This document shows positions 3,001 to 32,500 of a stretch of DNA of 46,612 bases, in pieces. Source of the DNA: Pseudomonadota bacterium (lineage in GTDB: Bacteria > Desulfobacterota > Desulfobacteria > Desulfobacterales > JBDRRP01); assembly GCA_043825735.1 (NCBI GenBank), contig JBDRRP010000152.1:62001-108612 (forward strand), in the 5' to 3' direction. The notes below the pieces were generated by a model. That model was not told the origin of the DNA and did no database searches. It saw nothing but the letters and a program-made list of their open reading frames with translations. A program made the position numbers and the translations under genes. Every line of letters starts with the position of its first letter. Position 1 is the stretch's first letter.

Positions 3001-3497
3001 CAGGCGAGACGGCACGGGGCCTTGTCCGCCTTCTGAATGGCAAAGGCTCCTGGGATCGCCTGGGGGTATTTCTTGAAGGTGGCCTTCCGCGTGGACAGGT
3101 TCTCATCATATCCGTTGGGCAGATCCACCGGGCAGACCTTGGCGCAATCGCCGCAGCTGGTGCACTTGGAAAGATCGATAAAGCGGGGCTGCTGCCGGAT
3201 CCGGGCAGAAAAATGCCCAGGGGTGCCGCTGAGATCAATCAGTTCGGTATTGGTCAGTAACTCGATGTTCAGGTGCCGGCCGACCTCGACCAGTTTCGGT
3301 GAGATCACTCACATGGCACAGTCGTTGGTTGGAAATGTCTTATCGAGCTGGCTCATCATGCCGCCGATAGCGGCCGATGGCTCCACGAGATAGACATAAT
3401 AGCCGGAATTGGCCAGATCCAGTGCCGATTGCATTCCCGCAATTCCGCCGCCCACGACCATAACGGAACCGACGGGCGCCGTGCCGCTCGTCTCCAT
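1..3497 (-). CDS. hdrL: HdrL-type large HdrA-family flavoprotein (HdrA module with inserted GltD/NfnB-like NAD(P)H-binding domain); selenoprotein; 3' end outside window
   Basis: ATG at 3497 after GGGAG. N-terminus reads [18 protein letters not shown]...[12 protein letters not shown], then in-frame TGA at 3309-3311, then [16 protein letters not shown]. The frame stays open to the window edge (no stop-terminated ORF in this frame in the track). It contains [39 protein letters not shown] and [14 protein letters not shown] (GltD-like insert), then [13 protein letters not shown] and [12 protein letters not shown] (HdrA). Confidence 0.9.
3276..3293 (-). promoter_or_regulatory. Bacterial SECIS hairpin for Sec codon 3309-3311
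   Basis: CUGGUCG-AGGU-CGGCCGG starts 15 nt after the UGA and is identical in all three hdrA-family genes. Confidence 0.8.
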
Positions 3498-3532
3498 GAA
3501 CTTGCTCCCTTGTTGTGTCTGTGGCATCGTTT

Positions 3533-4408
3533 TCACCTCTGCACGCGTTCTAGAATATCTGCCAACCGGTTTTCCCAGCCAAGGGTCGCCAGCATGACGC
3601 CGGGATATCCGGCCCGCTTGATGCTGGTGATCACTTCAGCGGTGATCTGTATGCATTCACGCACCTTGTCGCCGGCGCCCTGAATCCGTTCGATAAAGCG
3701 CTCGGGGATGCGAATGTGGCTCATGTTGCGGGCCATGTAGCGTGCCATGCCCAAAGATTTGAGCAGCAGCACCGTGGGGATGATGGCGGGCTGTGAGGCT
3801 TTCAGCTTCATCATATAGGGTTCCATGGCCGAGACGTCGAACAGGGGCGGTGTGATGAAAAAGCTGGCGCCGGCGGCCATTTTCTGATTCAGCGCCTCGA
3901 TTTCCAACTCAGGCGATTTGCCCACGGCGCCGAATTGGCAGGTGGATCCCACCAGGAAACTGGGCGCGCCACTCAGCTCGATACCCGCCATGTCCTTGCC
4001 CTGCTTGAGACCGGCGATGACCTTCAACAGTTCGGGCAGATCGATGTCATTGACCGTCCGGGCCTGATGGTGATCACCGTAGCTGGTATCTTCGCCGGTA
4101 ACGGCCATGACGTTTTCCACCCCGCAAGCGCCGGCCGCCAGCAGATCGGCCTGAAGCGCCAGGCGGTTGCGGTCCCGGCAGTTGACCTGCATCACGGTGG
4201 GCATGCCCTTGGACTGGAGGATCATCGCCCCGCCCAGGGCACTCATGCGCATGACCGCGTTGCTCATTTCCGGAACAATGAACGCATCCACCATGCCCTT
4301 GACCCGTGTGGCATTGTTGACCATGGCGGAAACATCCACCCCTTTGGGCGGCTCCATCTCAGCCAAAACCACAAAATCACCGGCATCCAATTTAGTATTC
4401 AGTGGCAT
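3533..4408 (-). CDS. Divergent MetF-like (methylenetetrahydrofolate reductase family) flavoprotein
   Basis: [28 protein letters not shown] and GDHHQA motifs align with the metF at 22248-23201. The canonical GD and TQ motifs read GED and TPP here. Confidence 0.85.
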
Positions 4409-4555
4409 CGGGATTCCTTTTCTGGCTTTTTGTTATTGTCAGTCCGATCTCGGGCAACGACACGCCTACCACGACACCGCCCCGCAAACGAAAGGGATTT
4501 CCTGCGTCAATAATCATGGGGCGAATAAGTACTCAGGTTGGTCGTCGGTTTAGAG

Positions 4556-4571
4556 AGCAATCCCTATGCCA
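4556..4571 (-). promoter_or_regulatory. Sigma54 (-24/-12) promoter for the metF-like/hdrL operon
   Basis: TGGCATAGGGATTGCT on the minus strand has exact GG-N10-GC spacing. There is an IHF-like AAACAATCGGTTA at 4600-4612 and an adjacent divergent sigma54 activator. Confidence 0.8.
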
Positions 4572-6380: not shown

Positions 6381-8141
6381 GTGAATGCCCTTTGGCTCTG
6401 CCTGCTGGCCCTGGTGTGGTTCGTGATCGGTTATCACCTCTACGGACGGTTCATCGAAAGGACCCTGGTCAAACCCGACGACGCTCACGTCACCCCTGCC
6501 CACGCCATGAACGACGGTGTGGACTTCGTGGTGGGCCGGCGGATCTACCTCTGGGGCAACCACTTTGCATCCATCGCCGGGGCCGGGCCCATCATCGGTC
6601 CCATTGTGGCGGTGTCCGTGTTCGGATGGGGGCCTGTATTCGCGTGGGTGCTGGTGGGGGCGCTGTTCATGGGGGCCGTCCACGACTACCTGTCGCTGAT
6701 GATTTCGGCGCGGCACCGCGGCGCGGGTATCGCCGAACTGGCCGAGTCGCTGCTGGGAAGAACGGTAAGAATGGTGTTCGCGCTGCTGCTTTACATCGTG
6801 CTGGTGCTGCTCATCGCGGTGTTCATGGTCAGCGTGGCCCAGGCCTTCATCAACATGCCGGCCCTGGTGGTGCCCACCCTGGGGCTCATTGGCATCGCAG
6901 TAGTGATGGGCCTCGCCATGGAGCGATGGCACGTTCCCGAGGTGCCGGCGGCCACCGCGGCGGTGGCCGCGGCCTATTTTCTGATCTGGGTGGGCTACCA
7001 TCTGCCGGTTTCACTGCCGTCTTTCTGGGGAGACACGGTGGTGCTGGCCGCATGGTGCCTGGTGCTCACCGCTTACTGTTTGTCTGCGTCCATAGCGCCC
7101 ATGTGGCTACTGCTCCGGCCGCGGGATTTCATCTCGTCGGTGAAACTGGTGGTGGGCATGCTGTTGGGGCTCGCGGCCATCGCGGTGGTACAGCCCACGA
7201 TGTCCGCGCCAATAACGTCCGGCGGCTTCGTCTCCCATGGGAAACCCCTGTGGCCCATCCTGTTCATCCTGGTGGCGTGCGGCGCCATCAGCGGGTTTCA
7301 CGCCATCGTCTCCACCGGCACCACTGCCCGACAGCTTGACCGGGAGTCCGACGGCCGCCCCATCGCCTTCGGCGGCATGCTCACGGAAGGGTTGCTGGCG
7401 GTGGTGGTGATCGTGGTGGTGTCCGGCGGGCTCACCTGGGGGGCGGCGCCCGTCGGCGTGACCGGCGCAGCGGCCAATCTGTATTTCGCCACGGCCTTGA
7501 AACACAGCTGGATCGTTGCCTTCGGCAGCGGTTTCGGACACCTGGTTGGAGAGATGGGCATTCCGCTGCTCACATCCAGCCTGGCGGCGCTTCTGGGGGC
7601 GGTGATGGTTAAATCCTTCATTCTCACCACTCTGGACGCCGGCACCCGGCTGGCGCGGTTTCTGGTGGTGGAAACCCTGGGCGAAAAGGTCCCCGTGCTC
7701 AGAGGCCACCTGGCAGCCAGCCTGGTGGTGGTGCTTCCCGCGCTGGTCATCGCAGTGACCAACACCTACCATGAAGTGTGGAAGCTTTTCGGCGCGGCCA
7801 ACCAGCTCATCGCGTCTGTGGCCCTGGTGACGATCAGCGCATACCTGGCCCACGACCGGCTCCCCAAACGATACACCCTGATCCCGGCGGTGTTCATGCT
7901 GGCCACCACCGTGGGCGCCCTGCTATGGGAAAGTTTTGGCGGCGCCACGGGTTACCTCACGTCCGCCACCCCCGACTGGCCGCTGGGCATCCTCGCTTGT
8001 GTGCTGGTAGTACTGGCCGCCGTCATCGTGGCCGGAGGTGTGAAAGCGCTGGCCCGGGAGGGCGGATGGAAGCCCTCTTTTCACTGGAAATCCAGAACCA
8101 AGACAGCCGAACGCCTCGGGGATCACCGACTGAGCATGTAG
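6381..8141 (+). CDS. cstA: Carbon starvation protein A family transporter
   Basis: TPAHAMNDGVDF, HFASIAGAGPIIGP, GAVHDY, ACGAISGFH, GGMLTEG, TTLDAGTRLARF and FGAANQLIA. GTG start after GGAG. Confidence 0.93.
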   Translation: MNALWLCLLALVWFVIGYHLYGRFIERTLVKPDDAHVTPAHAMNDGVDFVVGRRIYLWGNHFASIAGAGPIIGPIVAVSVFGWGPVFAWVLVGALFMGAVHDYLSLMISARHRGAGIAELAESLLGRTVRMVFALLLYIVLVLLIAVFMVSVAQAFINMPALVVPTLGLIGIAVVMGLAMERWHVPEVPAATAAVAAAYFLIWVGYHLPVSLPSFWGDTVVLAAWCLVLTAYCLSASIAPMWLLLRPRDFISSVKLVVGMLLGLAAIAVVQPTMSAPITSGGFVSHGKPLWPILFILVACGAISGFHAIVSTGTTARQLDRESDGRPIAFGGMLTEGLLAVVVIVVVSGGLTWGAAPVGVTGAAANLYFATALKHSWIVAFGSGFGHLVGEMGIPLLTSSLAALLGAVMVKSFILTTLDAGTRLARFLVVETLGEKVPVLRGHLAASLVVVLPALVIAVTNTYHEVWKLFGAANQLIASVALVTISAYLAHDRLPKRYTLIPAVFMLATTVGALLWESFGGATGYLTSATPDWPLGILACVLVVLAAVIVAGGVKALAREGGWKPSFHWKSRTKTAERLGDHRLSM

Positions 8142-8846
8142 CGGGATGCCCGTCCTTGACGACACGCACATTGAATGTTCTAGGCGCCCATCCATCCAGA
8201 AGAAATGCATTGTTTGTGGTGTATCTCGTCCCCTTTTTTCATTTTGGGAGCGTCGCCATGAAATGGGATGGCTACGAAGGGCACTCTGCGCGGCCCAATA
8301 ATCGCGAAAGGGCTCAAGAGTGGGTTGTTATTCGGTCTCACTTGATATGGCTATGTAATAACGTGCTTTATTTCCATGGCAGCCGATCTGGAGCACGTTT
8401 GGTTGCACTGGAGGCCAGGACGGTTCCCCGAGGCGCTATCGCCTGTCTCGGCAAACAGGAGTTTTCCCGCTGGTATCAATTTCGTATGATACTAAAGCAA
8501 TCGCCGACTTTTGCCGAAAACACCACTTCACGCGGTTTGCGTTTTTCGGATCGTCCTCAGCACTAAAAGCAGGCCGAACCCGCTGGCTGCCTGCGACATC
8601 ACTCTTGAATGTCCCTTTGTGAATATGATAGGGCATTCGTGTACATGTAGCATCTTTGGGAAAAATGATGGTTCCCATGATTCACGACTTTGAGGCCCCT
8701 TATTATCAACAATCAAGGTGCTCCAATCGTTGGTCCTAATTTTAAGTATCACGATCCTAAATGAAGCTCCAGTGAGGTCGTCGTATGACCGTATCTGTCA
8801 CCAGGCAGTGTTATGACAGTCTCAACACCAACCAACGGAGGCTGCC

Positions 8847-9865
8847 ATGACCGAGTTCACGGTCATCGAGGACTTCCCCGAATCTGAGATTGAGTTTCAT
8901 GCACGATTTTCAGACCCGAAGTCCTGCTACGATTTACTGTTTCAACATAAATGGCCTGAAGGCTTTGCCTGCAAAATGTGCAGTCAGCAAGGTTGACAGC
9001 CCCGTAAAAAGTCCATTTTTATGCATTTTTTAGTAGCTAACCTATTGATATTACAGGACTCGAATTTCCAATTATCGACTTTTTACGGACTCATCAAGTT
9101 TACTGGCTGAGCAAACGGAATTTGTACATTTGCACCGAATGCGAGCATCAGCATTCACTGACCACCGGAAGCATCATGGATAGCTCCAATTCGCCGATTA
9201 CTCTCCGGTTCAAGGCTATGTGGTGGTTCACCACCAGAAAATCAGGCATCAATGCCGTGAATCTCAAAGAACTAATGGGCTTTGGCAGCTAGGACACTGC
9301 GTGGACCTGGCTCCAGAAGCTCAGAAGTTGCACCATACGAGACGATCGCGGAAAACTTTCTGGGCTCATTTAAGTCGATGAGTTTTTCATCGGCGTACAA
9401 CACTCAGGCAAGCGAGGCCGCGGGGCTGAAGGAAAGGCCATTGTCACGGTTTCTGTGGAAAGATGAAACGAGAAAAAACGAATGATCGCATTCGCCTTCT
9501 TGTTGCACTTGATTGAACAGCTTACTCATTAGAGACTTAAATCCCCGACAACATTGAGCCCGGGGCTAAAATCGCTACGGATCCATGGCAAAGCTATAAC
9601 GTCCTTGACAAAGAGCAGTTCCAACACGAGCAAATGAATCAACTCAAAAACCACGGCAGCGGCAAACTATATAGTGTTCACTTGATAACGACCCTAATAA
9701 GGCGTCTCATCATTGGCACCTAACAGGGTCGGTTTAAACCAAAGTATCTTCAGAACTACCTCGATGAGATTGTCTTACGGTTCAATCGCCGGAAATCAAA
9801 TAACATCGGGAAAAAATTGATGCGCACCGTTCAGCAGGCAACACGTTCTTGCAAGATTCCCTAAG
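8847..9865 (+). pseudogene. IS1595-family (ISXO2-like) transposase pseudogene
   Basis: GGAGG then ATG at 8847. Fragments read KWPEGFACKMC...YICTEC (Zn ribbon), TAWTWLQKLR, VDEFFIG, IATD and KYLQNYLDEIVLRFNRR. It carries an internal insertion, in-frame stops and frameshifts; the 3' end is approximate. Confidence 0.85.
8994..9096. mobile_element. MITE-like non-autonomous element inserted in the transposase
   Basis: Ends tgacagccccgtaaaaagtc / gactttttacggactcatca are inverted repeats. Removing 8994-9100 restores the transposase frame (QQG-YWLS). Flanks aggt/agtt resemble a 4-bp duplication with one mismatch. Confidence 0.75.
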
Positions 9866-9955
9866 ATGCAACCACATGGGATATAGGCCCCATCTTAGAA
9901 TATTTTTTTACAACTGGAGCTTCGTAGAGAAGCGTATTAAGATTTAGGTGTATGA

Positions 9956-10945
9956 ATGGCTAGAGCGGACATTTTATTGAGTATAGTTAAATCCGCGATT
10001 GGCAATGACAGCCTGTCTCTTCGAAAAGCTGTTGAAGCGATGGCAGCTGATGAACGCTCGAAAAACCATCGTATCCTGGCCAATCGTCTTGAAGAACTTC
10101 TCGCGGGACAGGCCAATCAGATCAACAGAACCACCCCCTTCATCCAAAATGGCGCAAGAGACCTGGTATTCGAAACGACACCCGAAAAGCGATTTTCGGA
10201 TCTTATACTTGAGCAGGGTGTATTGGACCTATGCAGTGAGTTGATCGAGGAACATCATCGAGCCGATCTGCTTGGATCATATGGCCTCGAACCACGCCAC
10301 CGACTGCTATTTGTCGGCCCGCCAGGAAATGGGAAAACGACTTTGGCTGAGGCGGTCGCGTCTGAATTGATGTACCCCTTTATAGTAGTTCGTTACGAAA
10401 ACATTATTGGCAGTTATTTGGGCGAAACAGCGTCCAGGCTGCAAAAGGTATTCGATGTGGCCCGGTCGAGAAAGTGTGTCATTTTTTTGGATGAATTCGA
10501 GACATTGGGTAAGGAGCGAGGGGACACGAGAGAAACTGGAGAGATCAAGCGTGTCGTTAGTTCCCTGTTACTTCAGATAGACCGCTTACCATCTCATACG
10601 GTTGTCATCACCGCCAGTAACCACCCTGAATTGCTCGACAGGGCCGTTTGGCGTAGATTTCAGATTAAAGTAAGATTATCGCCGCCCACAAGAGAACAAT
10701 GTATTCTGTTTATCAAGAAATTCGAACAACGGGCAGGCTTCAGCTTCGATACATCTCCCAAAACTCTGGCTGATAAATTAGTCGGTATAAGTTTTTCCGA
10801 AATAGAGGAATTCTGTATTGACGTGTTGCGACGCTGCATCCTGAGCCATGCACAGGACAATCCGCATGAGATCATCAAAAGCCGGATAAAGAACCTTGAA
10901 AGTAGGTACATACTTGGCAAGCAAGAGGCTGAAAATGCCGGATAA
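9956..10945 (+). CDS. ietA: AAA ATPase, IetA-like
   Basis: GPPGNGKT, IGSYLGETASRL, IFLDEFETLGKERGDTRETGEIKRVVSSLL and LDRAVWRRF. It overlaps the downstream S8 protease gene. Confidence 0.85.
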   Translation: MARADILLSIVKSAIGNDSLSLRKAVEAMAADERSKNHRILANRLEELLAGQANQINRTTPFIQNGARDLVFETTPEKRFSDLILEQGVLDLCSELIEEHHRADLLGSYGLEPRHRLLFVGPPGNGKTTLAEAVASELMYPFIVVRYENIIGSYLGETASRLQKVFDVARSRKCVIFLDEFETLGKERGDTRETGEIKRVVSSLLLQIDRLPSHTVVITASNHPELLDRAVWRRFQIKVRLSPPTREQCILFIKKFEQRAGFSFDTSPKTLADKLVGISFSEIEEFCIDVLRRCILSHAQDNPHEIIKSRIKNLESRYILGKQEAENAG

Positions 10946-13685: not shown

Positions 13686-13846
13686 GAAGTGTATTTATAT
13701 AGCCGATACAATGGGAATGGAGATCCGGTGTCATCACATCTTGCGATGTTAATTAGACGGGTAACAATCAGGTTTATTCGCTATGCAAGATGAGACGCAG
13801 GAAATTTTAGTTATGTAAGTTAGTCAAGAATGCCCCAACGTTCCTT

Positions 13847-18965: not shown

Positions 18966-18966
18966 A

Positions 18967-19821: not shown

Positions 19822-19975
19822 TTGTAATTGGAAAATAGAAAAAAGGCCGATAACTTTTATTCTTAGTATTTTTAATTGTTCTATCTGACAATTAGAATAA
19901 GCCAAACTAAAAAATTATGGGCATCCTTTCATTCCAATCTCAAGTACGACCTCACCCTCAACGGGAACCAGTTCA

Positions 19976-21853
19976 ATGTCAATAGGGAAACCGGGAGCCC
20001 CACGCGTAGCGCTTTTAAATATGCCGTTTTCTACATCCCGCCGACCGTCTATTCAAACCGGTCTACTCCAGGCGATTATTGAAAAAAACGGTTATTACGT
20101 AAAAACTCACTACTTAAATTTGAAGTTTGGCGCTCGCATTGGTTGGGATCTAAATGAAAAAATTTGTCAGGGATTTTATCGTCACCTGCTGGGCGAATGG
20201 ATTTTTTCATATGCTGCATTTGGAAACGAATCGATCGAAAGTAGCCGTTACCTTGGAGCCTATGCCAACCACCTTACCGGATATTGTGAAACGCTTGGGT
20301 GCAACACTGAATTCCTAACCGAACTACGTATGCGAGTAGCGCCGGCTTTTATCCAGGAATGTCTTGAAACAGTAGCTTGGGAAGATTACGATGTCATTGG
20401 TTTCAGTTCAGTGTTCCAACAAAACTGCGCCGCCTTAGCCTTGGCGCATCTTTTAAAAAATCATTTCCCACAAATCTTTATTGTTTTTGGGGGCGCTAAT
20501 TTCGAAGATGAGATGGCTCTGGAATATGTGCAGACTCTTGCGTGGATTGATTATGCTATCATCGGTGAAGGGGATGAGGCTTTCCCAATGCTGTTGGAGC
20601 GTTTGACAGCCGGTGATCTAAAACCCGACATGCCTGGCATTGCTTACAGGAAGGGTGAAGAGATTTTTTATCGTGGCCGTTCACCAATGGTTAAAGATCT
20701 TAACGCCTTGCCAGAGCCTAATTACGATGACTTTTTTGCCACTGCGCTGGCGGTGGAACTCCCAGGTACTGTGGTAGGCTGTGAAGTTGCGCTGCTTTTT
20801 GAATCATCACGTGGTTGTTGGTGGGGGGCGAAGCACCATTGCACCTTCTGTGGGCTTAATGGACTATGCATGACCTTCAGACCCAAATCTCCTGAGCGAG
20901 TTTTGGCAGGTATTGACGAACTCTCGCGCCGGTATGGTGAAAATTCTTTCGCAGCAGTGGATAACATTTTAGATAATCGATATATACGTGCGGTTTTTGA
21001 CCCATTATCTAAACAAAAGACTGACTACACCTTCTTTTATGAGGTGAAAGCCAACCTCACACCGACTCAGCTTCGCCGCATGGCACAAGGTGGTGTCCGC
21101 TTTATACAGCCGGGTATTGAGAGTCTTAGTACCCACACACTCAAATTGATGCAAAAAGGGACGACCGGCATTCAAAACGTGCTGCTTTTGAAATGGGCGG
21201 TCTATTATGGAATGTCTGTAAACTGGAATATCCTTTACGGTGTACCAGGGGAGAACCCGGAAGACTTTGAAACACAATACGAAACAATGAAACTTATTCC
21301 GCATTTACCTCCCCCCCGAGGATTGATACACATTTGGCTTGAGCGGTTTAGTCCAAACTATATTAAAGCTGAAGAAATGGGCTTTCAAAACATACGCCCC
21401 TTCGGGTCATATGCCTGTATTTACCCGGAATATATATCACCACACAAAATTGCGTATTTTTTTGATTACGACCTAACGAAAAACTATTCTGATGAGGCCC
21501 TTAAACCAATGAGCGATTATATCAGATGGTGGCGGGGCGCATGGGATAATCAGAAAAAGCCTTATTTGGTCTATCTCCGTGGTGCTGACCGAATGACGGT
21601 CATTGACGGCCGCAGGCCCGATATGCCAAAATCATATATATTCCATGAACCGGCTGTGCTAATCTATGAGTACTGCAATTTAAAATACAAAAGTGCCCGA
21701 TTGATTTCAAAGCACCTTCGTAGTAGGTTCGGCTTAGACACTGATGAATGCAATGTGCAATCTGATTTAGATAAATTCATAATGCTTGGCCTTATAATGA
21801 AAGAAGATTCTAATTATCTTAGCTTGGCCCTGCCGGCTAACCCCCATTGGTAG
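19976..21853 (+). CDS. RiPP-maturation B12-binding/radical SAM enzyme (TIGR03975-like C-methyltransferase family)
   Basis: NMPF..RPSIQTGLL, LLGEWIF, FQQNCAALALA, GGANF, GEGD, ESSRGCWWGAKHHCTFCGLNG (Cx7Cx2C), VDNIL, YEVKANL, QPGIESLS, WNILYGVPGE and ERFSP, with a C-terminal wHTH/RRE-like region. Confidence 0.9.
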   Translation: MSIGKPGAPRVALLNMPFSTSRRPSIQTGLLQAIIEKNGYYVKTHYLNLKFGARIGWDLNEKICQGFYRHLLGEWIFSYAAFGNESIESSRYLGAYANHLTGYCETLGCNTEFLTELRMRVAPAFIQECLETVAWEDYDVIGFSSVFQQNCAALALAHLLKNHFPQIFIVFGGANFEDEMALEYVQTLAWIDYAIIGEGDEAFPMLLERLTAGDLKPDMPGIAYRKGEEIFYRGRSPMVKDLNALPEPNYDDFFATALAVELPGTVVGCEVALLFESSRGCWWGAKHHCTFCGLNGLCMTFRPKSPERVLAGIDELSRRYGENSFAAVDNILDNRYIRAVFDPLSKQKTDYTFFYEVKANLTPTQLRRMAQGGVRFIQPGIESLSTHTLKLMQKGTTGIQNVLLLKWAVYYGMSVNWNILYGVPGENPEDFETQYETMKLIPHLPPPRGLIHIWLERFSPNYIKAEEMGFQNIRPFGSYACIYPEYISPHKIAYFFDYDLTKNYSDEALKPMSDYIRWWRGAWDNQKKPYLVYLRGADRMTVIDGRRPDMPKSYIFHEPAVLIYEYCNLKYKSARLISKHLRSRFGLDTDECNVQSDLDKFIMLGLIMKEDSNYLSLALPANPHW

Positions 21854-21889
21854 AACCTGACAAGTGACATAAAATGATGGAGTTATGAT

Positions 21890-22123
21890 ATGCAGAAAAA
21901 TCAGCTGAAAGAAATTATTGCTCTGGATACAGTGAAATCATCGGATTTCACCGATGAATTACCGGCTTCTGAGCAACTCGCTCTGAGATGGGTTTTAGAA
22001 CGTGCAAAAACAAAGTATACACAATCGCATTCATTCAATCGGGCTTGCAATTCGTCACCTTGTGCAGAACTGCGCTTTGGGCCTCCCGGTCGTGAGCTTG
22101 CATGGTCTGAAGACCCATACTAA
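21890..22123 (+). CDS. Candidate RiPP precursor peptide (77 aa)
   Basis: GGAG RBS at 21879-21882, starting 36 nt after the rSAM stop. The N-terminal IIA....K...F..EL......AL pattern resembles NHLP-type leaders. The C-terminal part has 2 Cys and several aromatic residues. Confidence 0.55.
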   Translation: MQKNQLKEIIALDTVKSSDFTDELPASEQLALRWVLERAKTKYTQSHSFNRACNSSPCAELRFGPPGRELAWSEDPY

Positions 22124-22180: not shown

Positions 22181-22226
22181 ATAAAACGGCCCGATGCGCG
22201 CGTCACGCATCGGGCCGTAGCTTTTT
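22181..22226. terminator. Intrinsic terminator, probably bidirectional
   Basis: Perfect 13-bp stem ACGGCCCGATGCG (22186-22198) / CGCATCGGGCCGT (22206-22218), with an A-run on the left and a T-run on the right, between convergent genes. Confidence 0.85.
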
Positions 22227-22247: not shown

Positions 22248-23201
22248 TCAGTCCACCACGGGCCTCGGCAGCACCTTGGCCTGCGCGGCGATCTCGGGGA
22301 CCTTGTGCTCCCACTCGATGGCCATGAGATGAACCCCGTGCACGCCCTTCATCTCCTTGAACTCGGCGATCTGCTCACAGGCGATGTTGATCCCCTCCTG
22401 GGCCACGTTCTCTTTGCCGGCCCCCTGGAGCCGCTTGATGATCTCATCGGGAACGTCCATCCCGGGCACCTTGCTTTTCATGTACTTGGCCATACCGACG
22501 CTCTTCATGGGCGTAACGCCGGCGAGGATGTACACCTTTTCGGTGAGACCCATGTCGTTGGCCTGGCGGATGTACTCCCTGAACTTCTCCATATTGTAAA
22601 TACACTGGGTCTGGATGAAGTCCACGCCCGCTTCGATTTTCTTGGCCAGCCGGTGTACCCGCCATTCAAAAGGATCGGCAAAGGGATTGGCCGCCGCACC
22701 GATAAACATTTTCGGCGCCTCGTCGATATCGCCGCCGCTGAGAAACTTACCCTCGTCTCTCATGGTCTTGACCATGTTGATCAGCTGGGTGGAATCGATG
22801 TCGAACACGCCTTTGGCCGTGGGGTGGTCACCGAAAAGGCAGTGGTCGCCCGACAGGCACAGCATGTTTCTCACGCCATGGGCGTAGGCGCCCAGGATGT
22901 CACCCTGCATGGCCAGCCGGTTGCGGTCACGGCAGACCATCTGGTAGTTGGGTTCCAGCCCCTCCTGAATGGCGATGATGGCGGCGGCCCAACTGGACAT
23001 GCGCACCACGGCGGTCTGGTTGTCGGTGATGTTGACCGAATCCACATTCCCCTTGAGAAACCCTGCCTTGTGCCTGACCTCTGCCGCATTGGCGCCGCGC
23101 GGCGGTCCCAGTTCGCCGGTAAATGCGAAGTGACCTGCCTTGAGAATTTTTTCCAGGTTGCTTCCTGCTTTATAACCGTTTGGCTCTGTCATCTGCGTCA
23201 C
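22248..23201 (-). CDS. metF: Methylenetetrahydrofolate reductase large subunit
   Basis: [52 protein letters not shown] and GVHLMAI. Confidence 0.93.
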   Translation of the reverse strand: MTQMTEPNGYKAGSNLEKILKAGHFAFTGELGPPRGANAAEVRHKAGFLKGNVDSVNITDNQTAVVRMSSWAAAIIAIQEGLEPNYQMVCRDRNRLAMQGDILGAYAHGVRNMLCLSGDHCLFGDHPTAKGVFDIDSTQLINMVKTMRDEGKFLSGGDIDEAPKMFIGAAANPFADPFEWRVHRLAKKIEAGVDFIQTQCIYNMEKFREYIRQANDMGLTEKVYILAGVTPMKSVGMAKYMKSKVPGMDVPDEIIKRLQGAGKENVAQEGINIACEQIAEFKEMKGVHGVHLMAIEWEHKVPEIAAQAKVLPRPVVD

Positions 23202-23275: not shown

Positions 23276-23950
23276 CTATTCCACTTTTTCCGGCTTCTTG
23301 TAACCGGGCTGGATGAGAGTCCGCGGGACACTGTCTTTCCAGCCGGTTACGGCATAGATCTTCTTGATGTTGTCCAGCCGCCCCTGAGCGGAAAGCCGCT
23401 CATAGATCTTGAACCAGGCGCACGGCTGCTCCTGGCTGATCTCGCACTTGCCCTTGTTGGTGCCGCCGCAGGGGCCGTTGTAGAGCCCCTTGGCGCACAT
23501 GGTCACCGGGCAGATGCCGCCGGTCCAGCCCAGCACGCAGCTCTGGCAGGAACGGCAGCGCTCTTCATACCAGCCCACCGCCTGGTTGACGGCCAGACCC
23601 GAAGTGTTGACGCCCGGAAACACCGGCGTGTCCGGGAACCGCTCGGCCAGAAACTGGATACCGACCCCGCAGGCCATGGAGATGAGCGCATCATAGCCGC
23701 CGACCTTGTCATCCAGTGCCGCCAGGTACTCCCGGTCGCATTGGCGCTCCACCGTGTGGGCGGCAATTTCGATAGGGTTGTCTGCCAGTTTTCTGGCCAT
23801 CTCCAGTTCGGCGTTGAGCACGGCCACCTCTTTCTCGCCGCCCGCCAGGCAGACCGATACACAGGTGCCGCACCCTACGTTCAGGACGCGCTTGTAGTCC
23901 TTGAGCATTTCCATTATTTCATCAAAGGGTTTCCGTTCTGCAACTATCAT
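23276..23950 (-). CDS. metV: Methylene-THF reductase small Fe-S/Zn subunit
   Basis: GCGTCVSVCLAGG, RQC, MACGVG and CRSCQSCVLGWTGGICPVTMCAKGLYNGPCGG..GKCE...CAW. It lies directly upstream of metF. Confidence 0.92.
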   Translation of the reverse strand: MIVAERKPFDEIMEMLKDYKRVLNVGCGTCVSVCLAGGEKEVAVLNAELEMARKLADNPIEIAAHTVERQCDREYLAALDDKVGGYDALISMACGVGIQFLAERFPDTPVFPGVNTSGLAVNQAVGWYEERCRSCQSCVLGWTGGICPVTMCAKGLYNGPCGGTNKGKCEISQEQPCAWFKIYERLSAQGRLDNIKKIYAVTGWKDSVPRTLIQPGYKKPEKVE

Positions 23951-24003: not shown

Positions 24004-25317
24004 TTATTCCTGTTCCGGGTGAAAAACCAGTACGTCCTTGAGATCGTCACCGAGATATTCGCGCTCCTTGGGACCGAGGATGCCCAAAGACAGGCACATC
24101 AGTGTCCACAGATGCACGGTCTGCCAGGGATGATCGCGCACATCGCTCAAATCGTGGATCTGGGCGTGGCAGTTATGGCACGGTGCGATGCAGTAAGCGG
24201 CACCGGTGGCCAGGATCTGCTCGGCTTTGAGCCGGCCGTATTCACGGCGCTCCTCGTTGAAACCCGACTGCAGAAATCCGCCGCCGCCGCCGCAGCAGTA
24301 GTTGTTGCAGCGGTTGGGCGTCATATCGATAAAGTTCTCTTCCCCCACCACCGATTTGACCACAAAGCGCAGGTCCTCGGCAATGGGATCGCCGTAACTT
24401 TTTCGCACGATCTGGCAGGGGTCCTGAACCGTGAACTTGATCTTGAGATCCTTGTTCCAGTCGCTGTTGACCTTGAGCCTGCCCTCGCGGATCCATTTGG
24501 CATAATACTCGTAGATATTCTTGACTTCGAACTTGTGCGCGATGTTGAATTTTTTCAGTCCGGCCCGGACTGAGAAAGTGACATGCCCTCACTCGGTGTT
24601 GAGAAATGTCTTGCACCCCAGCGCATCGGCCTGCCCCGCCGTGGTGCGAGTGATGTGCTCCCAGGCGGCGTTGTCGGCGAGAAACAGGCAGTAATTCTCA
24701 CCGGCCCATCCCTTGCTGCCGTACGTCCAGTCGACACCGGCCAGGTGAAGGAGCTTCCACAGCGGCACCATCTCGTCCGGCTCGGTCACCGGCTCACGGC
24801 TGTTCTGGTTCAAGAAGAATTCGGCGCCCTCTTTGTCGATGGGTGCCTGCATGTCGGCAAATTCCGGCTGAGCCTCCTGGTATTCGGCCAGCACGTCTTC
24901 CACCACGAAGCGAAAATCCTCCGGTGTGGCGCCCATGGCGCTGGTGCTGTCGTTTCGAAGCGCCATGTCGCAGGAGTCGAGAATCCCCTTGGGGCGCGTC
25001 TCCCGCGGCCAGCTAGCCCGGACGTTGAAAACGAGCTGCGGGATATCGATTTTCATAGGGCAGACGTAGATGCAGCGCTGGCACATGCTGCACATCCAGA
25101 CCCATTTTGTTGATTTGATTTCTTTGTCCATCCCCAACGCCGCCATTCTCAAAAACTTGCGCGGGTCCATGCCCTCCAGGCCCGAGGCCGGGCAACCCGC
25201 CGTACAGGCGCCGCAGGTCAGGCACAGGTTCAGGTTGCCGCCCTCGGGCAGCAATGCCTTGACCGTGTCGATGAACGGGCTTTTGTTCTTTGTCAGCGTG
25301 ATGGCTGTATCATCCAT
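24004..25317 (-). CDS. HdrD/DsrK-like Fe-S oxidoreductase (HdrC-like 2x[4Fe-4S] plus CCG domains), selenoprotein, 437 aa
   Basis: CLTCGACTAGCP and CSMCQRCIYVCP, then FLNTE-TGA(24589-24591)-GHVTFSV, which is the ECGH motif with Sec. The same frame continues into QDPCQI, NYCCGGGGG and PCHNC of track ORF 24004-24408. Confidence 0.88.
24555..24573 (-). promoter_or_regulatory. Bacterial SECIS hairpin for Sec codon 24589-24591
   Basis: Perfect 8-bp stem UCAGUCCG-GGC-CGGACUGA starts 15 nt after the UGA. Confidence 0.8.
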
Positions 25318-25340
25318 GGCATCCTCCGGACAGTGAGGCG

Positions 25341-25754
25341 TTATTTCCCTTTCAGCGGATTGGGGCCCAGCGCCGTGATATGCTCGGTCATCTCCTTGGC
25401 ATAGGCCGCAAAGGTGGGGCCTTCACCGGAGGAAAGGTTGTACATTCTGACCCGATCCCCCTCGATGCCGATCTCTTCAAGAAGCATTCGGACGTGGTTC
25501 ACCCGCTCACGGCAACGCAGGTTGCCCTCGTTGTAGTGGCAGGCGCCTTCAAGGCAGCCCACGCAATAGGCACCGTCGGCCCCTTTCTGGATCGCGCGCA
25601 GCAAATGCATCACATCTACTTTTCCGGTACAGGGGACCCGGATGATCTTGACGTTCGTCGGGTAATTCAGTCGCATGGAACCTGCCAGGTCCGCTGCGGA
25701 ATACCCTCAGTATTCGCAGCAAAACGCGATGATGGTGGGTTCAAATTCCGCCAT
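25341..25754 (-). CDS. mvhD: MvhD/FlxD-like [2Fe-2S] protein, selenoprotein (Sec16), 137 aa
   Basis: ATG at 25754 overlaps the hdrA stop (TAATG). It reads MAEFEPTIIAFCCEY-TGA(25707-25709)-GYSAADLAGSMRLNYP...VPCTGKVD...VGCLEGACHY. Confidence 0.9.
25677..25692 (-). promoter_or_regulatory. Bacterial SECIS hairpin for Sec codon 25707-25709
   Basis: GGACCU-GGC-AGGUUCC lies 14-15 nt after the UGA. The stem is shorter than in the other five. Confidence 0.6.
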
Positions 25755-28700
25755 TACACCCCCTCCGCCAGCAAGGCATCAATTTTACAGGTTAGCTGAT
25801 CGTCTTCGTAGAAACTCAACTGAATGGTCTGGCGCGGGCACACGGCGGTACAAACGCCGCACCCGTGGCAGAGGGCCTCGTTGATTTCGATGACTTTTTT
25901 CTCGGCATTCCACTGAGGAACCCCGAACGGGCAGGACCGCACACAGGTGAGGCACTTGACGCAGTAATCCGTGTCGACCTTGGCGGTGATGGCCGAAAGT
26001 TTGATGACGTCATTGGCCAGGAATGTGGTGGCCCGCGCCGCCGCGGCCTGGGCCTGGGCGATGGTCTCGCTGATCAGTTTGGGGCCATGGGCCGTGCCGC
26101 ACAGAAACACCCCGTCACTGGGCATGTCCACAGGCCGGAGCTTGACGTGGGCTTCCAGGAAAAAGCCCTCGGGGTTGCGGTTGAACTTCATAATGCCGCT
26201 CAATTGATCGGTATCCGCGGCGGTAAGACCGGCGCTGAGCACCAGTTTATCGGCGCTGATGGCCAGCGGCTGCTGCAGGATATGGTCTTTTACCGATACC
26301 ACGAGCACGCCGCCGTCCACCGATACAACTGGCGGAGCGGTCTCGTCAAACCGGATGAAGATCACGCCTTTTTCCCGCGCTTCCTTGTAGTAATCCTCGA
26401 GCAGGCCGTATGTGCGGATATCCCGATAAAGAATGAAAACCTGAGCATCGGGGTTTTTCTTCTTGAGGGTCAGGGCGTTTTTGACCGCCGCCTGACAGCA
26501 GATCCGCGAACAATTTTCATTTTCCGCGTTGCGTGAGCCCACGCACTGGATCATCACGACCGAATCCAGACCTTCGGCACCGGTTTCCTCAAGGATATCG
26601 GTCAACCCGACCTGGGTCACCACCCGCGGGTCCTGGCCGTAGAGAAACTCGGTGGGCTGATATTCATTGGCGCCGGTGGCGACGATGATCACGCCGTGAT
26701 CGATCTTCTGGGGCTCGCCCTCGGCGCCCACGCGCACCTCGGTAGTAAAACTCCCCTTGAACCCTTCGAACCCGGTGATGGTCGCATCGGTGAGCACCGA
26801 GATCTTGTCATTGGCGGTGACATCACCGATGAGCTGTTTGAGATAGGCCTGGACGTCCGCACCCTCGATGGTGTGGTGAAGCTTCCGGGCGAATCCGCCG
26901 AGCGCGGTATCCTTTTCCACCAGGGCGACCTCAAATCCCTGTCTGCCCAGCCCCAGGGCCGCATTCATCCCGGCGATGCCGCCGCCGATGACCAGGGCGC
27001 GCTTGTTGATGGGCACCACCTTGCCTTCGAGCTGCTTGAGCGTGCCGGCCCGGGCCACGGCCATGCGTACCAGGTGCTTGGCTTTCACGGTGGCGGCAGT
27101 GTGATCGTTGGAATGAATCCACGAGTTCTGGTTGCGGATATTGGCCATCTCAAAAAGGTATTTGTTAAGTCCGCAAGCCTCCAGGGTCTCCATGAACATG
27201 GCTTCATGGGTCTTGGGGCTGCAGGAGGCCACCACCACCCGGTTGAGCTGCTCCTTGATGATGATTTCCTTGATCTTGTCCTGGGTATCCTGGCTGCAGG
27301 TAAACAGGTTCTGATCGGAAAAGACCACACCTGGCAGACTGGCGGCATATTTGGTGACGTCCGGCACATCGACGATGCCGCCGATGTTGATCCCGCAGTT
27401 GCACACGAATACGCCGATGCGCGGGGCTTCCCCGCTGACGTCCTTTTGCTCGGGCAGCTCGATTTTCTCGATGTCGTTGCCTCTAGCCCCGGCCAAAGCG
27501 CCTCCGGCCAGACAGGCGGCCGCACTGGCCTCGGTCACCGAACTGGGAATGTCCTTAGGGCCCTGCATCACGCCGCAGGTGTAAAATCCCGGCCGTGAGG
27601 TGGCGACAGGATCAAAGGGGCTGGATTTGGCGAAGTTGTATTTGTCGAGTTCAATGCCCATGCGCGCGGCCAGCTGGGCGGCATCGGGCTGAACCTGCAG
27701 TCCCACCGAAAGCACCACCATGCTGAAGACCTCTACATGCATGGCCCCGGCTTCATCCACATATTTCACTTCGAGATCGCCGCTGCCGGGCAACTCGGTG
27801 ATGGTGTGGATCCTTGCCTTGACAAACCGCACGCCGTCCTTGTTCTTGGCGCGCAGGTAGTACTTTTCGTAGTCTTTGCCGAAGGTCCGGATGTCCATGT
27901 TGAAAATGGTGCAGTCCAGATCGCCGTGGATGTGTTCCTTGGCGATCATGGCCTCCTTGACGGCGTACATGCAGCACACCGAGGAGCAGTACCCGTTGCC
28001 GCACCGGTTGGTGTCCCTGGAGCCCACGCACTGGAACCAGGCGATGCGCCGCGGCTCCTCACGGTCCAGGGGGCGCATGACATGGCCGAAATAGGGGCCG
28101 GAAGCGCTCAGAATGCGCTCGAACTCCTCGCTGGTGACCACGTTGGCATATTTGCCGTAGCCCCAGAAATCGAGACCCGAGGGATCATAGCCCTCACTGC
28201 CGGTGGCCATGATCACCGAGCCCACCGTTATCTGGGTCTCCCGGCGCTGGTCGCTGTAGTTGACCGCCTTGGCGATACACATATTTTCGCACAGGCCGCA
28301 GCCGATGCAGGTGTCGGTGTCGATGGCAAAGGCCAGCGGCACGGCCTGGGCGTATTCGATATACGTGGCCCGGCGGTCGTCGAGCTTCTTGTTGTAGGCA
28401 TTGACGGCGGTCACCGGGCAGTGACGGGCGCACTCGCCGCAGCCGGTGCACGCGACCGGGTCGATGTAGCGCGGGTGGTTGACCAACGTCACCTGGAAGT
28501 CTCCGGGCTTGCCGTCCACGCGATCTACTTCACTGCACATGACCAATTCGATGTTAGGGTGCCGGCCGACCTCGACCAGTTTGGGCGAGATCACTCACAT
28601 GGCGCAGTCATTGGTTGGAAAGGTCTTGTCCAGCCGGGACATCATCCCGCCGACGGTGGGCGATTTGTCCACCAGGTAAACCTTGTACCCGGCATTGCCC

Positions 28701-28783
28701 AGATCCAACGAGGCCTGCATACCGGCGATACCGGCACCGACCACCAGCACCGAACCGCTTGTTTTGCCTTGCGCTGCTCCCAT
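25754..28783 (-). CDS. hdrA: Tandem-module HdrA-family flavoprotein, selenoprotein (Sec63), 1009 aa
   Basis: Track ORFs 28595-28783 and 25754-28594 share a frame across [23 protein letters not shown]. There are two FAD-binding GxGxAG modules and ferredoxin CxxCxxCxxxC motifs. Confidence 0.93.
28562..28579 (-). promoter_or_regulatory. Bacterial SECIS hairpin for Sec codon 28595-28597
   Basis: CUGGUCG-AGGU-CGGCCGG starts 15 nt after the UGA. Confidence 0.8.
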
Positions 28784-28792
28784 GACAACTCC

Positions 28793-29542
28793 TTATCGTG
28801 CCACAAAAATGGGTTTATGGTCTTCCATTCCTTTGTACTCGACCATACTTCGCTTTTCCATATCGGCCAGAAGGTAGGAAATCTGTTTGAGCGCCAGACC
28901 GATATTGGCGTTGATCTCCCGCGGCGATTTGCAGCCGCCCTTGATGGCCTGCAGGATCAACTGGATGTGGTATTCGCGCTCCAGTATCCCGTCGAGAATG
29001 CATTCAAACGTGTCCGCATCCCACCGGCGGCCGTAGACGTCGCCCTTGGCGGTGATCTTGACTTCCTTTCCCACGGTCCAGCGCAGGGTCTCTCCACTGA
29101 GCGCCGCTTCGATGGCGTCCAGTTCAAGTCGGTAAGTCGCAGGGTCGAACTTGCCCAGACTGCGGATGGTGTCGGTGACCGTGGTGGCGATCTCGGCAAA
29201 CCGCTGAGCTTCGGCCGACGAACACCAATAAAGGTGCAGCCGGTCTTTCCCGATACCGGAAACGGCCAACAGGTTTCGGGTCATGCGGATCTTCTTTTCG
29301 GCTTGGACATTACCTTCCAGGTAATGGCAGTCACCGATGTGTCAGCCGGCGACCAACACGCCGTCGGCGCCCTCCTTGAGCGCCTTGACCACAAACAGCG
29401 GATCCACCCGGCCCGAGCACATCACCCGGACCGTTCTCAGGTTGGGCGGATATTGCAGACGGGACACGCCCGCCAGATCGGCGCCGCCGTAAGCGCACCA
29501 GTTACATAAAAAAGCGACAATCTTCGGTTCAAAATCTCCCAT
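28793..29542 (-). CDS. mvhD: MvhD/FlxD-like protein with C-terminal extension, selenoprotein (Sec67), 249 aa
   Basis: [15 protein letters not shown]...VMCSGRVD...GVLVAG-TGA(29342-29344)[11 protein letters not shown], in frame with track ORF 28793-29284. Confidence 0.9.
29308..29326 (-). promoter_or_regulatory. Bacterial SECIS hairpin for Sec codon 29342-29344
   Basis: Perfect 8-bp stem CAUUACCU-GGA-AGGUAAUG starts 15 nt after the UGA. Confidence 0.8.
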
Positions 29543-29593
29543 CGATGCACCTGCCTCTATACGCGGTTACAGGTTGTGTTTCCCTGGGGCCGT

Positions 29594-32500
29594 TTAGCTC
29601 ATGACGGCACAGACGGTGGCGCCGATCTGCGCGTCTCTGAAATGGAGCATGTCTATGGCTTTCTGCGGACAGGTGGCAGCGCACAGCCCGCAGCCCTTGC
29701 ACGATGCCGCAATGTTTCTCGCACGCAGCCCCTTGCCCTCGGTCTCGTCCATGGTGATCGCCCCGAAGGGGCACACCTCGGCGCACAGACCGCATCCGAT
29801 GCATTTTTCCGTATCGATCTGGGATACCGTGGGGGCGATGTCGATGGCCGCGCGGGAAAGTACGGTCGCCGCCCGACTGGCCGCGGCCATGGCCTGGGCG
29901 ATACTCTCATCAAGGGCCTTGGGATAGTGGGCGATGCCGCACATGAAAATCCCGTCGGTGGCAAATTCCACCGGCCGCAGCTTGGCATGGGCCTCCATGA
30001 AAAAGCGCTCCGCGTTCATGGGGACCTTGTAAAGCTCTGAGATGGTGGTGCCGTCGGCCGGCTCAATCGCCGTGGCCAGGTTCACCAGGTCGGCCGCGAT
30101 GGTGACTTCCTGCTGAAGGATCGGCTCAAAGACCGACACTTGCAGGCGATCGCCCGCCGGGGTGACCACCGGCTTGCGATCGAGGGTGTAGCGGATAAAG
30201 ATGACTCCCAGTGCGCGGGCTTTTTTGTAAAGCAGTTCGCGCTCGGCGTAAGTCCGGATGTCCCGGTACAGGACATAGACGCCGGCCTCCGGGTTTTGCT
30301 CTTTCACCCAGATGGCCTGGGATACGGCGGTGGTGCAGCAGATCCGCGAGCAGTAGGGGCGCTTGTCATCCCTGGAGCCGACACACTGAATAAAGACCAC
30401 GCTTTCCGCGGCCTTCACCCGTTCGAGGTCATGTTCGATGTCGTGCCACCGACCCACCCGGTCGCTTTTGCCAAAGCCGTACTCCTCGGTCGTTGTGGCC
30501 TGGCCGCCGGTGGCCACGATTACCGCCCCGTGGCTGATGGTCCGGGCGTCCGCGCCGTCCATGATGACGGTGGTCTCGAAATTGCCGACAAATCCCAAGG
30601 CCGCCGTGGGCGATGCATTGAGCAGCACCTCGATCTTGGGGTGGTTCTCTACGCGATTGACCAGATCGGCCACAAAGGGTGCCACCGCAGTGCCGCTCCA
30701 GGTTTTGGAAACGTCCAAGGCGGCGCCCCCGAGCTTGCCGGAGCGCTCTACGATAACCGCCGGAAACCCCTGATCGGCCAGATTGATCGCGCTGGTCATG
30801 CCCGCCACGCCGCCGCCGATGATCAGAGCCGTCTTGTTGACCGCCACGGACAGCTCCGGAATCGACTCCAGCAGAGCGGCCCGGGACACGGCCATGCGCA
30901 CCAGGTCCTTGGCCTTGCCGGTGGCCGTGGCCTTGTCGGTGGAATGGACCCAGGTGCACTGATTGCGGATATTGGCCATCTCGAACAGGTACGGGTTCAG
31001 GCCGGCGCCGCGGATGGTTTCCTGAAACAGCGGCTCGTGGGTTCTGGGTGTGCAGGCCGCCACCACGATTCGGTTGAGGTTCTGCGCCTTGATCACTTCG
31101 ATCATCTTGTCCTGAGTGTCCTGGCTGCAGGTGAAGAGGTTTTCCTCCACATAGGCCACACCGGGCAACTGTCTGGCGTATTCCGCAATGGCAGGGACAT
31201 CGGCAAATCCGCCGATGTTCACGCCGCAATTGCACACGAACACGCCGATGCGCGGCCCCTGCCCGGCAACGTCTGTCTGTGTGGGAAAGGCGGCGCTTTT
31301 TACCAGAGTATCCCGGGCCGAGGCCAGACTCACGCCGGCGCAGCAGGCCGCCGCACTCGCCTCCATTACCGACTGAGGAATGTCCTTACAGCCCTGAATG
31401 ACGCCGGCCACGTAAATGCCGGGTCTGGATGTGGACACCGGCGTGGTATCATTAGTTTTCACAAACCGGTGCTCGTTGAGCTCCAGACCCAGTGTTTTGG
31501 CCCCTTCCAGCGCCTTGATCGAGGGCTCCATCCCGACGGACAAAACAACCATGTCGTAGGTTTCCACGACCCGTCGGCCATCATCTGAGGCATATTCCAG
31601 ATTCAGGGTACCGCTGGGATCGGCCTGGGTGATGGAGTGCACCCGGGAGCGGATGAACCGCACGCCGTCGCTTTTGGCACGATTGTAATATTTTTCGAAA
31701 TCCTTGCCGTGGGTGCGCATGTCCATGAAAAAAATGGTGGACTCGAAATCGCCGCCGATGTGCTCCTTGGCGATAATCGCCTCCTTGATGGCGTACATGC
31801 AGCATACCGACGAGCAATACGAATTGTCGCAGCGGTTGAGATCCCTGGAGCCCACACACTGGAGCCAGGCAATCTTCTTGGGCTCGGCCTCGTCGGAGGG
31901 CCTGAAGATATGCCCGCCCGAGGGCCCCCCGGCAGACAGGATCCGCTCGAACTCGAGGCTGGTGACCACGTTGGGCAGCTTTGCGTACTGGTAATGATCG
32001 AACGCCGAGGGGTCAAAGGCCTGAAGTCCGGCGGTAAATATTACCGAGCCCACCGCCACGGTGACCGCTTCGGGTTTTTCATCGAATTTGATAGCAGCCG
32101 TGGGGCAGAACTTTTCGCAGGCCTTGCACTTGCCTTTTTTGAAATAAATGCAGTGCGCGGCGTCGATGGCGTACTTCAGCGGCACCGCCTGGGGATAGGG
32201 CACGTAGATGGCTTTGCGCTTGGCAAGGCCTTCATCATAGGCATTGTCGACTTTCGCCGGGCATTTCTCGGCGCAGGTGCCGCAGGCGATGCACTTGTCC
32301 ATGTCGACGTATCTGGGGTGCTTGGTGATGGAAACGGTAAAGTTGCCCTCTTGCCCGTCGATATGGGTCACTTCCGAAAGGGTGAGCAGCTCAATGTTCG
32401 TGTGCCGGCCGACCTCGACCAGTTTGGGTGAAATAATTCACATCGCGCAGTCGTTGGTGGGAAAGGTCTTGTCCAGCTGGCTCATCACGCCGCCGATGGC

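Follow-up and report, generated by a model that had tools for sequence, protein, structure and literature searches.

The stretch of DNA analysed here, hereafter the window, comprises 46,612 nucleotides from a member of the Desulfobacterales (G000:C152:62001-108612), and its minus strand carries two clusters of hdrA, mvhD, hdrD-like, metV and metF genes. Six genes of these clusters, that is, three of the hdrA type, two mvhD genes and one hdrD-like gene, contain a TGA inside the reading frame. Then, are these codons stops, or are they read as an amino acid? All six were confirmed at the coordinates and in the peptide contexts given by a first-pass annotation of the same DNA, and the position of each is held by cysteine (Cys) in paralogues, relatives and solved structures. 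The codons lie in open frames, each is followed by a hairpin, the hairpin goes with the TGA allele in relatives, and the genome encodes the machinery for selenocysteine (Sec). It is very likely, with a probability of roughly 0.9 as judged from the sequences, that the hdrA, mvhD and hdrD-like genes are intact and that their six in-frame TGAs are read as Sec by means of standard Sec insertion sequence (SECIS) hairpins. The genes and codons are listed below, where U denotes the residue encoded by TGA, aa stands for amino acids, and a codon is named hereafter by its low coordinate.

3..3497, minus strand: hdrL, a fused HdrA dimer of about 1480 aa into which a GltD-like NAD(P)H/FAD module is inserted; U63
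3309..3311, minus strand: in-frame TGA of hdrL, C-x-x-U motif, context NDCAM-U-VISP
24004..25317, minus strand: hdrD/GlpC-like Fe-S oxidoreductase with 4Fe-4S dicluster and CCG domains; 437 aa, U243 in E-U-G-H
24589..24591, minus strand: in-frame TGA of hdrD, context LNTE-U-GHVT
25341..25754, minus strand: mvhD (PF02662); 137 aa, U16 in C-x-x-U
25707..25709, minus strand: in-frame TGA of this short mvhD, context FCCEY-U-GYS
25754..28783, minus strand: hdrA of the fused-dimer (BamE-like) type; 1009 aa, C60-x-x-U63
28595..28597, minus strand: in-frame TGA of this hdrA, context NDCAM-U-VISP
28793..29542, minus strand: extended mvhD; 249 aa, of which about 118 form a C-terminal extension, with U67 in the motif G-U-H-x-G-D-C-H-Y
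29342..29344, minus strand: in-frame TGA of this extended mvhD, context LVAG-U-HIGDCHY
29594..32617, minus strand: hdrA of the fused-dimer type; 1007 aa from ATG 32617, C57-x-x-U60
32438..32440, minus strand: in-frame TGA of this hdrA, context NDCAM-U-IISP

Reading frames across the TGA codons

When each gene is read through its TGA, a single long frame with one internal TGA and unbroken domain matches is obtained. The motif D-C-A-M-U, a C-x-x-U in a domain like that of thioredoxin reductase (TrxR), is present in all three HdrA-type proteins. The hdrL frame starts at ATG 3497 (alternatives are 3527 and 3536), crosses the left edge of the window and ends at G000:C152:61055. The first-pass annotation had claimed that the TGAs fall at conserved Cys positions with frames that continue, and had proposed an alignment with Cys-containing homologues as a check. 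The claim is borne out by the read-through frames and the Cys alleles, and in the alignment the UGA not only faces a conserved Cys, but is itself conserved as UGA.

Alternatively, the TGAs could be true stops, belonging to pseudogenes or split genes or produced by assembly errors. A GTG directly follows the TGA in two of the hdrA frames, and gene callers emit pieces. However, the same codon is TGA in many genomes and is never TAA or TAG among the motif-matched rows, the coding potential is high both 5' and 3' of the TGAs, and termination would remove the flavin-binding N-terminus or the Fe-S ligands. This explanation is hardly credible.

The fragmentation by standard annotation that had been foreseen is visible in a public protein collection, where MvhD 29342 is represented by its two halves (66 and 163 aa) and MvhD 25707 by a 111-aa piece, each as a protein of its own (three of the five fragments queried), whereas none of the three read-through forms queried there, with C at U, was found. 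Split annotation of such genes is also seen in the locus tags of D. multivorans. None of the public RNA runs was found to contain RNA of this organism; the best have at most 9% of the words, and at 85% likeness short pieces from relatives are obtained, which are mostly less than 95% alike.

SECIS hairpins and the TGA allele

The predicted SECIS upper stem-loops after the six TGAs are as follows, with positions such as +24 counted downstream of the TGA.

3276..3293, minus strand: stem-loop of hdrL; 7 bp, loop AGGU at +23; 24-mer at 3273-3296
24555..24573, minus strand: stem-loop of hdrD; 8 bp, loop GGC at +24, with covariation among relatives
25678..25692, minus strand: stem-loop of the short mvhD; 6 bp, loop GGC at +21; a longer lower stem lies beneath
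28562..28579, minus strand: stem-loop of hdrA (25754..28783); 7 bp, loop AGGU at +23; 24-mer at 28559-28582
29308..29326, minus strand: stem-loop of the extended mvhD; 8 bp, loop GGA at +24
32405..32422, minus strand: stem-loop of hdrA (29594..32617); 7 bp, loop AGGU at +23; 24-mer at 32402-32425

All six upper stems are perfect, with 6-8 bp and a loop of 3-4 nt. They start at +16 at five sites and at +15 at mvhD 25707, and the GG of the loop lies at +24/+25 and at +21/+22, respectively, the latter positions as had been described. Measured against the consensus for bacterial SECIS of Zhang and Gladyshev (2005), in the form given by PMC13188914, the loops fall within 3-9 nt and the upper stems within 4-16 bp, G is present in the first two loop positions (AGGU three times, GGC twice and GGA once), the distance from UGA to loop (+21 to +24) falls within 16-37 nt, and the energies, which come from our own constrained fold and not from bSECISearch, are -8.1 to -12.3 kcal/mol against a threshold of -7.5 kcal/mol. 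That is, no feature of the six hairpins lies outside the consensus in that summary, and their narrow spacing is specific to the families. The Sec reading would follow because a standard bacterial SECIS, the predicted target of canonical SelB, stands behind each TGA.

Then, how specific are these hairpins? Genome-wide, about 590 (589-590) of the 226,938 TGA triplets (0.26%) have GG at +24 on a stem of at least 6 bp, while neither the 139 Cys codons within the six genes nor the 10 terminal TGA stops of other genes in the window show this pattern. An equally long GG-loop stem is retained in 0.7-7% of synonymous recodings.

In this genome and its relatives, a GG-loop stem of at least 6 bp follows 75 of the 78 TGA alleles, as against one of the 48 Cys alleles, at the four site types, counted over motif-matched sites in the fetched loci (best 30 per search, with the rows of this genome included). 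For hdrA the stem is found after 21 of 22 TGA alleles and 0 of 8 Cys alleles, for the second mvhD site after 18 of 18 and 0 of 9, for the first mvhD site after 7 of 7 and 1 of 28, and for hdrD after 29 of 31 (the remaining two have a GU loop) and 0 of 3. In several Cys alleles the same peptide is kept while the hairpin is lost. For the hdrD hairpin, 97.4% of the cells are paired in 29 sequences, with two-sided changes at 4 of the 8 pairs, some of which change the peptide; its covariation score is reached by none of 500 shuffles, and the slid controls are 18-43% paired. From these comparisons, the coding hairpins are evidently under selection, which the Sec/Cys allele contrast shows cleanly.

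An identical 24-mer in the three hdrA paralogues had also been reported, next to neighbouring codons that differ, and so it is: the genome has exactly three copies, all in the window (3273, 28559 and 32402). Could it be the product of recent gene conversion or duplication, rather than of selection on RNA structure? All 24 of 24 bases are identical in three paralogues of one contig, as such an event would leave them, but the wobble positions on both flanks differ. Moreover, the 18-nt core is also present in unlinked paralogues, and of 22 TGA alleles, which come from about 20 families of the order, 21 have it unchanged, against 0 of 7 Cys alleles, with a stem that never varies. This invariance across families refutes gene conversion, which we regard as very unlikely. 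The 24-mer would rather be identical because it must encode K-L-V-E-V-G-R-H and fold simultaneously: 384 of 18,432 synonymous encodings keep the hdrA hairpin, and none of the 96 synonymous cores compatible with it folds at a lower energy than the one observed. Therefore, the identity is explained without gene conversion.

From the window, the first-pass annotation had further derived a SECIS rule peculiar to this organism and had recommended the pattern UGA-15nt-stem-GG for scanning the genome; with GG placed at +24, such a rule would be set by the organism's own SelB. Indeed, the loop is at +24 in five of the six window sites and in 6 of 26 further candidate Sec sites. However, nearly every +24 site belongs to an hdrA, mvhD or hdrD paralogue, and identical hairpins occur in about 20 families of the order, within the general consensus that fits all six. 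Of the 26 further candidates, 9 belong to the three families of the window and 17 to others (selD, fdhA, DUF166, PrdB-like, rhodanese, HesB, CopZ-like, SO_0444, Prx-like and octaheme, and two without a family match). In these 17 the loop G ranges from +18 to +27, with one at +24 and the other 16 at +18 to +23 or +27. As a scan, with +21 also allowed, the pattern catches 12 of the 26 further sites and 6 of the 17 outside the three families, and 11 of its roughly 590 genome-wide matches at +24 are on the list of Sec sites. In the form proposed, an organism-specific rule is thus refuted, and the idea, which is very improbable, is corrected by the Sec/Cys allele contrast.

One has to bear in mind that this list of 32 candidate sites is a lower bound, partly selected by a hairpin filter that favours the consensus; irrelevant rows from a loose selD motif were excluded. 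New selenoprotein families were searched for genome-wide by coding potential and hairpin, and 20 of the 40 shortlisted frames were scanned against NCBIfam. Ten match known selenoprotein families across or around U, four match a family that does not clearly span the TGA (likely true stops, or unclear), and six have no NCBIfam match at 1e-8, two of which were kept on motif and hairpin (the MerB-like C45:66289, and C57:138914). The latter (G000:C57:138914, plus strand) is a candidate selenoprotein encoded by a small frame ending ...PRLGVPT-U-MSDACQV, whose hairpin is strong (-14 kcal/mol, loop AGGU at +17). In addition, MvhD homologues with two TGAs inside the match were seen at G023:C317:9123, G020:C36:4187, G003:C7:154973 and G038:C156:3024, although no more than one Sec per bacterial FrhD/MvhD was reported in 2007.

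Sec machinery and a second system for UGA

A check for selA, selB, selC and selD had been proposed, and all are present: the genome (6.8 Mb) encodes selA, a canonical selB, tRNA-Sec (75 bits) and two selD genes, each with one TGA. The canonical SelB retains the S-R-K-Y motif of the SECIS-binding helix. SelB is described as binding the SECIS apical loop and delivering Sec-tRNA to UGA (PMC4605307); by this established route, the canonical SelB would bind the G-rich apical loops found here and bring Sec-tRNA(UCA) to each UGA.

Outside the window, contig C107 (G000:C107:92540-97992) carries a UCA tRNA at 92540, a second selB (selB*) that starts 20 bases after it, and a shortened cysS (cysS*) that selB* overlaps. 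The tRNA has A1:U72 and U73 and, in a fold read by hand where ARAGORN drew a different one, an 8-bp acceptor stem, a 4-bp T stem and a bulged A. From its CGxTVY motif to the stop, CysRS* has 389 aa, against 439-456 in the CysRS of 17 relatives (those motif-matched among 19 loci), and is thus about 60 aa short; it is without the anticodon-binding domain, and its CP1 motif is altered. Judged by the features with which Mukai et al. defined the selC*-selB*-cysS* system (PMC5389517), the locus is this known Cys-at-UGA system. The gene order, the UCA anticodon, A1:U72 and U73 are common to the selC* tRNA-Cys (tRNA-ReC)/SelB*/CysRS* described for Desulfobacterales (PMC5389517, PMC7609411), as are the missing anticodon-binding domain and the altered CP1 (PMC5389517). 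Compared with the account in PMC5389517, CP1 reads M-R-D-A here and not P-T-V-S, and cysS* is followed by further genes, namely those of a double-cubane-cluster reductase, for which NF040772 exceeds its cut-off, and of the activator of this enzyme, sugar-ABC-like genes and, 6.5 kb downstream, the second Sec-containing selD (101127). Two other CysRS genes (G000:C121 ~70800-73500 and C53:31360) are present, one of them fused behind a cysteine-synthase-like domain, and both are more distant from cysS* than the CysRS of relatives.

A query with SelB* against the contig collection gave no confirmed relative; the relatives came from a genome search of the order, in which selB* occurs in 25 of 251 genomes (about 10%), none of them the sampled same-genus genome. 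In 23 of the 26 loci the UCA tRNA is directly upstream of selB*; only 4 have a cysS within 1.5 kb, and selA is also present in all five selB* genomes checked.

Several points weigh against reading the six codons as Sec, and against the role proposed below for the clusters. Folding energy alone is unremarkable at five of the six sites, where 11-44% of synonymous recodings fold as well (2.3% at hdrD); that is, the signal is position and loop, not stability. The hairpin rule was derived from these very sites, of which the three in hdrA are not independent. Rfam gave no matches in the window at gathering scores, and none in 24400-29500 up to E 5. The relatives are not independent either, and the covarying cells count sequences, not events. 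An acetyl-CoA synthase marker was seen only as two contig-end fragments, and the functional link to MetVF is drawn from gene order (of the 29 hdrD loci in relatives, 10 have metF and 7 have metV no farther than 1.5 kb away). Finally, selC*-selB*-cysS* is encoded in the same genome, and the inserted residue may partly be Cys. This second system, which the first-pass annotation had overlooked, makes the reading of UGA as Sec slightly less certain than was stated there.

Could both systems read the same codons? In such dual decoding, which is compatible with the Sec reading, selC* tRNA-Cys(UCA), SelB* and CysRS* would also act on the same UGA and hairpin sites, and Cys forms would be made when selenium is short. 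The C107 genes carry the defining features of the system for which Mukai et al. demonstrated opal suppression with Cys in E. coli, although the native CysRS* was without activity there (PMC5389517). SECIS-dependent Cys decoding is credited to Vargas-Rodriguez 2018 in PMC13582414, which calls the partitioning between Sec and Cys unclear; a literature search of incomplete coverage found no study of this partitioning in a native host. As for the RNA target, S-R-K-Y in the SECIS-binding winged helix is replaced by G-R-W-G in this SelB*, with PF09107 at 31 bits against 72 in the canonical SelB, so the target may differ. On the other hand, most of the 26 SelB* loci have a conserved G-Y-G-R where the canonical SelB has G-x-S-R-K-Y. 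The hairpins are the same in genomes with and without selB*, and hence were not shaped by SelB*; moreover, with the second selD so near, the system may mainly serve selD. Weighing these points, dual decoding is a real possibility with somewhat less than even chances, and sharing of the six hairpins by SelB* is plausible on sequence grounds. More tentatively still, every UGA of the Hdr/Mvh/MetVF modules might be decoded either as Sec by SelB or as Cys by the selC* trio, so that selenium supply would switch the C-x-x-U relay between selenenylsulfide and disulfide with one gene. If true, seven Sec sites in two neighbouring clusters, among at least 32 candidates genome-wide, would form a natural system for studying codon sharing and the contribution of Sec to HdrA-type bifurcation.

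For the Sec reading itself, the gain is mainly one of annotation: six core redox genes (seven with the neighbour outside the window, see below) that ordinary callers break up are intact. The locus is useful for an open question, that of codon sharing between tRNA-Sec and selC* as raised in a 2026 paper (PMC13582414), solely because a Cys-at-UGA system coexists with it. The locus also touches on the role of the HdrA Cys-Sec pair, which is called unresolved in a 2026 structure paper (PMC13518236).

Gene clusters and known systems

The remaining features of the two clusters are as follows.

3533..4408, minus strand: metF-like gene, directly upstream of hdrL and of the methylenetetrahydrofolate reductase (MTHFR) family; here the TGA, which no hairpin follows, is a genuine stop
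22186..22218, no strand assigned (reported on the plus strand): 13-bp inverted repeat, terminator-like, just downstream of metF
22248..23201, minus strand: metF (methylenetetrahydrofolate, or methylene-THF, reductase), by domain match
23276..23950, minus strand: metV (PF12225)

On the minus strand, the right cluster runs hdrA, extended mvhD, hdrA, mvhD, hdrD-like gene, metV and metF to the terminator-like repeat. The left cluster runs metF-like gene, hdrL and, beyond the window, mvhD, metV and metF. This mvhD, about 990 bases left of the window and overlooked by the first-pass annotation, is a seventh Sec gene with U16 and the same +21 hairpin (G000:C152:60630-61058; codon C152:61010), and with the metV and metF that follow it completes the hdrL cluster. 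Thus, both clusters end in metV-metF. In relatives, 10 of 29 loci have the orthologue of the extended mvhD flanked by hdrA genes on either side. Three more metV-metF pairs were observed in the genome (G000:C41, C88 and C129), those of C41 and C88 adjoining mvhD-like genes; the mvhD and hdrA of C41 are Cys forms, possibly selenium-independent counterparts.

Between the two clusters there is a low-GC island of unrelated genes at about 8000-22000 (28-49% vs. about 60%). Its genes encode an AAA ATPase together with an S8 protease, which are similar to IteA/IteS but score below the cut-offs, as well as ABC components of the branched-chain type, a protein with a methyltransferase domain and, with TIGR03975 above cut-off, a B12 radical SAM enzyme. 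At 36760-38725 of the window, on the minus strand, two tandem proteins have Cys-rich N-termini and a C-terminal domain like the glycine-cleavage H protein.

For the HdrA-type proteins, NF040770 is the best model, with scores below the whole-protein cut-off because of the different architecture. By motif reading against structural homologues, all three proteins have both the Glu and the Lys equivalent to E356/K409, the signature of bifurcating HdrA, in the first TrxR domain, which is the one with the Sec; in the second TrxR domain, one of the two is kept in hdrA 25754 and hdrA 29594, and the Lys in hdrL, where the Glu site is not clearly aligned. The MvhD proteins have Sec at one of the two known positions per gene: U16 of the short MvhD corresponds by motif position to Sec19 of BamF, and U67 of the long one falls in the G-C-H-x-G-D-C-H motif of solved MvhD chains, which we take to be Fe-S ligating. 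The C-terminal extension of the latter looks winged-helix-like and of BamF-like length. In the hdrD-like protein, the U-G-H motif stands in a 4Fe-4S and CCG protein, as in the Fe-S oxidoreductase-like (GlpC/HdrD) selenoprotein.

The Sec of HdrA would be the second residue of the C-x-x-C pair in the first TrxR domain, beside the bifurcating flavin, where it could take part in a selenenylsulfide relay. It is probably equivalent to Cys62 of BamE and to Sec197 of Methanococcus maripaludis HdrA, for which a Sec197-Cys selenenylsulfide bridge near FAD is reported (PMC13518236). The Hdr/Mvh proteins would act as electron-transfer modules for the MetV/MetF methylene-THF reductases. By analogy, the clusters most likely feed MetVF in the manner of the Hdr-type reductases reported for Moorella and Sporomusa (PMC9430772).

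These genes are new members of known selenoprotein families with standard SECIS, and both the families and the hairpin rule were already known. HdrA CxxU, MvhD CxxU and Fe-S oxidoreductase UGH are catalogued as selenoproteins in Table 1 of a 2026 paper (PMC13188914), which also records that they cluster in deltaproteobacteria. Sec forms of HdrA, HdrL, HdrD and MvhD were reported in Desulfobacterium autotrophicum in 2009 (PMC2702500). That Sec forms of HdrA and MvhD occur in deltaproteobacteria had been stated in the first-pass annotation as well. For symbionts of Olavius, a 2007 paper described bacterial FrhD/MvhD that use one of two Sec positions per protein (PMC1976440). The families, the clustering of hdrA with mvhD and the single MvhD Sec position per gene are common to D. 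autotrophicum HRM2, the Olavius symbionts and the present genome. Compared with those reports, however, five Sec genes stand here in one run, both MvhD positions are used, one per paralogue, and both clusters end in metV-metF.

The Hdr-type MTHFR of Moorella thermoacetica and Sporomusa ovata, MetVF-HdrCBA-MvhD (PMC9430772), likewise has hdrA, mvhD, metV and metF adjacent, and the 1480-aa HdrL matches the 1487-aa HdrA described there for Moorella, with two TrxR domains and a GltD insert. Unlike that system, no separate hdrB and hdrC are present here. Besides its two hdrA-mvhD pairs, the right cluster contains one fused HdrD-like gene, of which the left cluster has no counterpart, and Sec occupies six to seven positions. 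Since separate hdrB and hdrC are part of that system, the present clusters would be a variant rather than a plain member of it.

As to class II benzoyl-CoA reductase, BamE, BamF and BamD (bioRxiv 10.64898/2026.04.10.717634) have in common with the proteins here a fused HdrA dimer with a redox pair at residues 59-63 and a Lys near 280, an MvhD extended by what is likely a winged helix, and an HdrBC-like fusion. The residues C59-C62, K280 and Q768 reported for BamE correspond to C60-U63, K276 and K768 here. However, the redox pair is Cys-Cys in BamE and C-x-x-U here, and the cluster has no bamBC or bamGHI, its partner genes being metVF.

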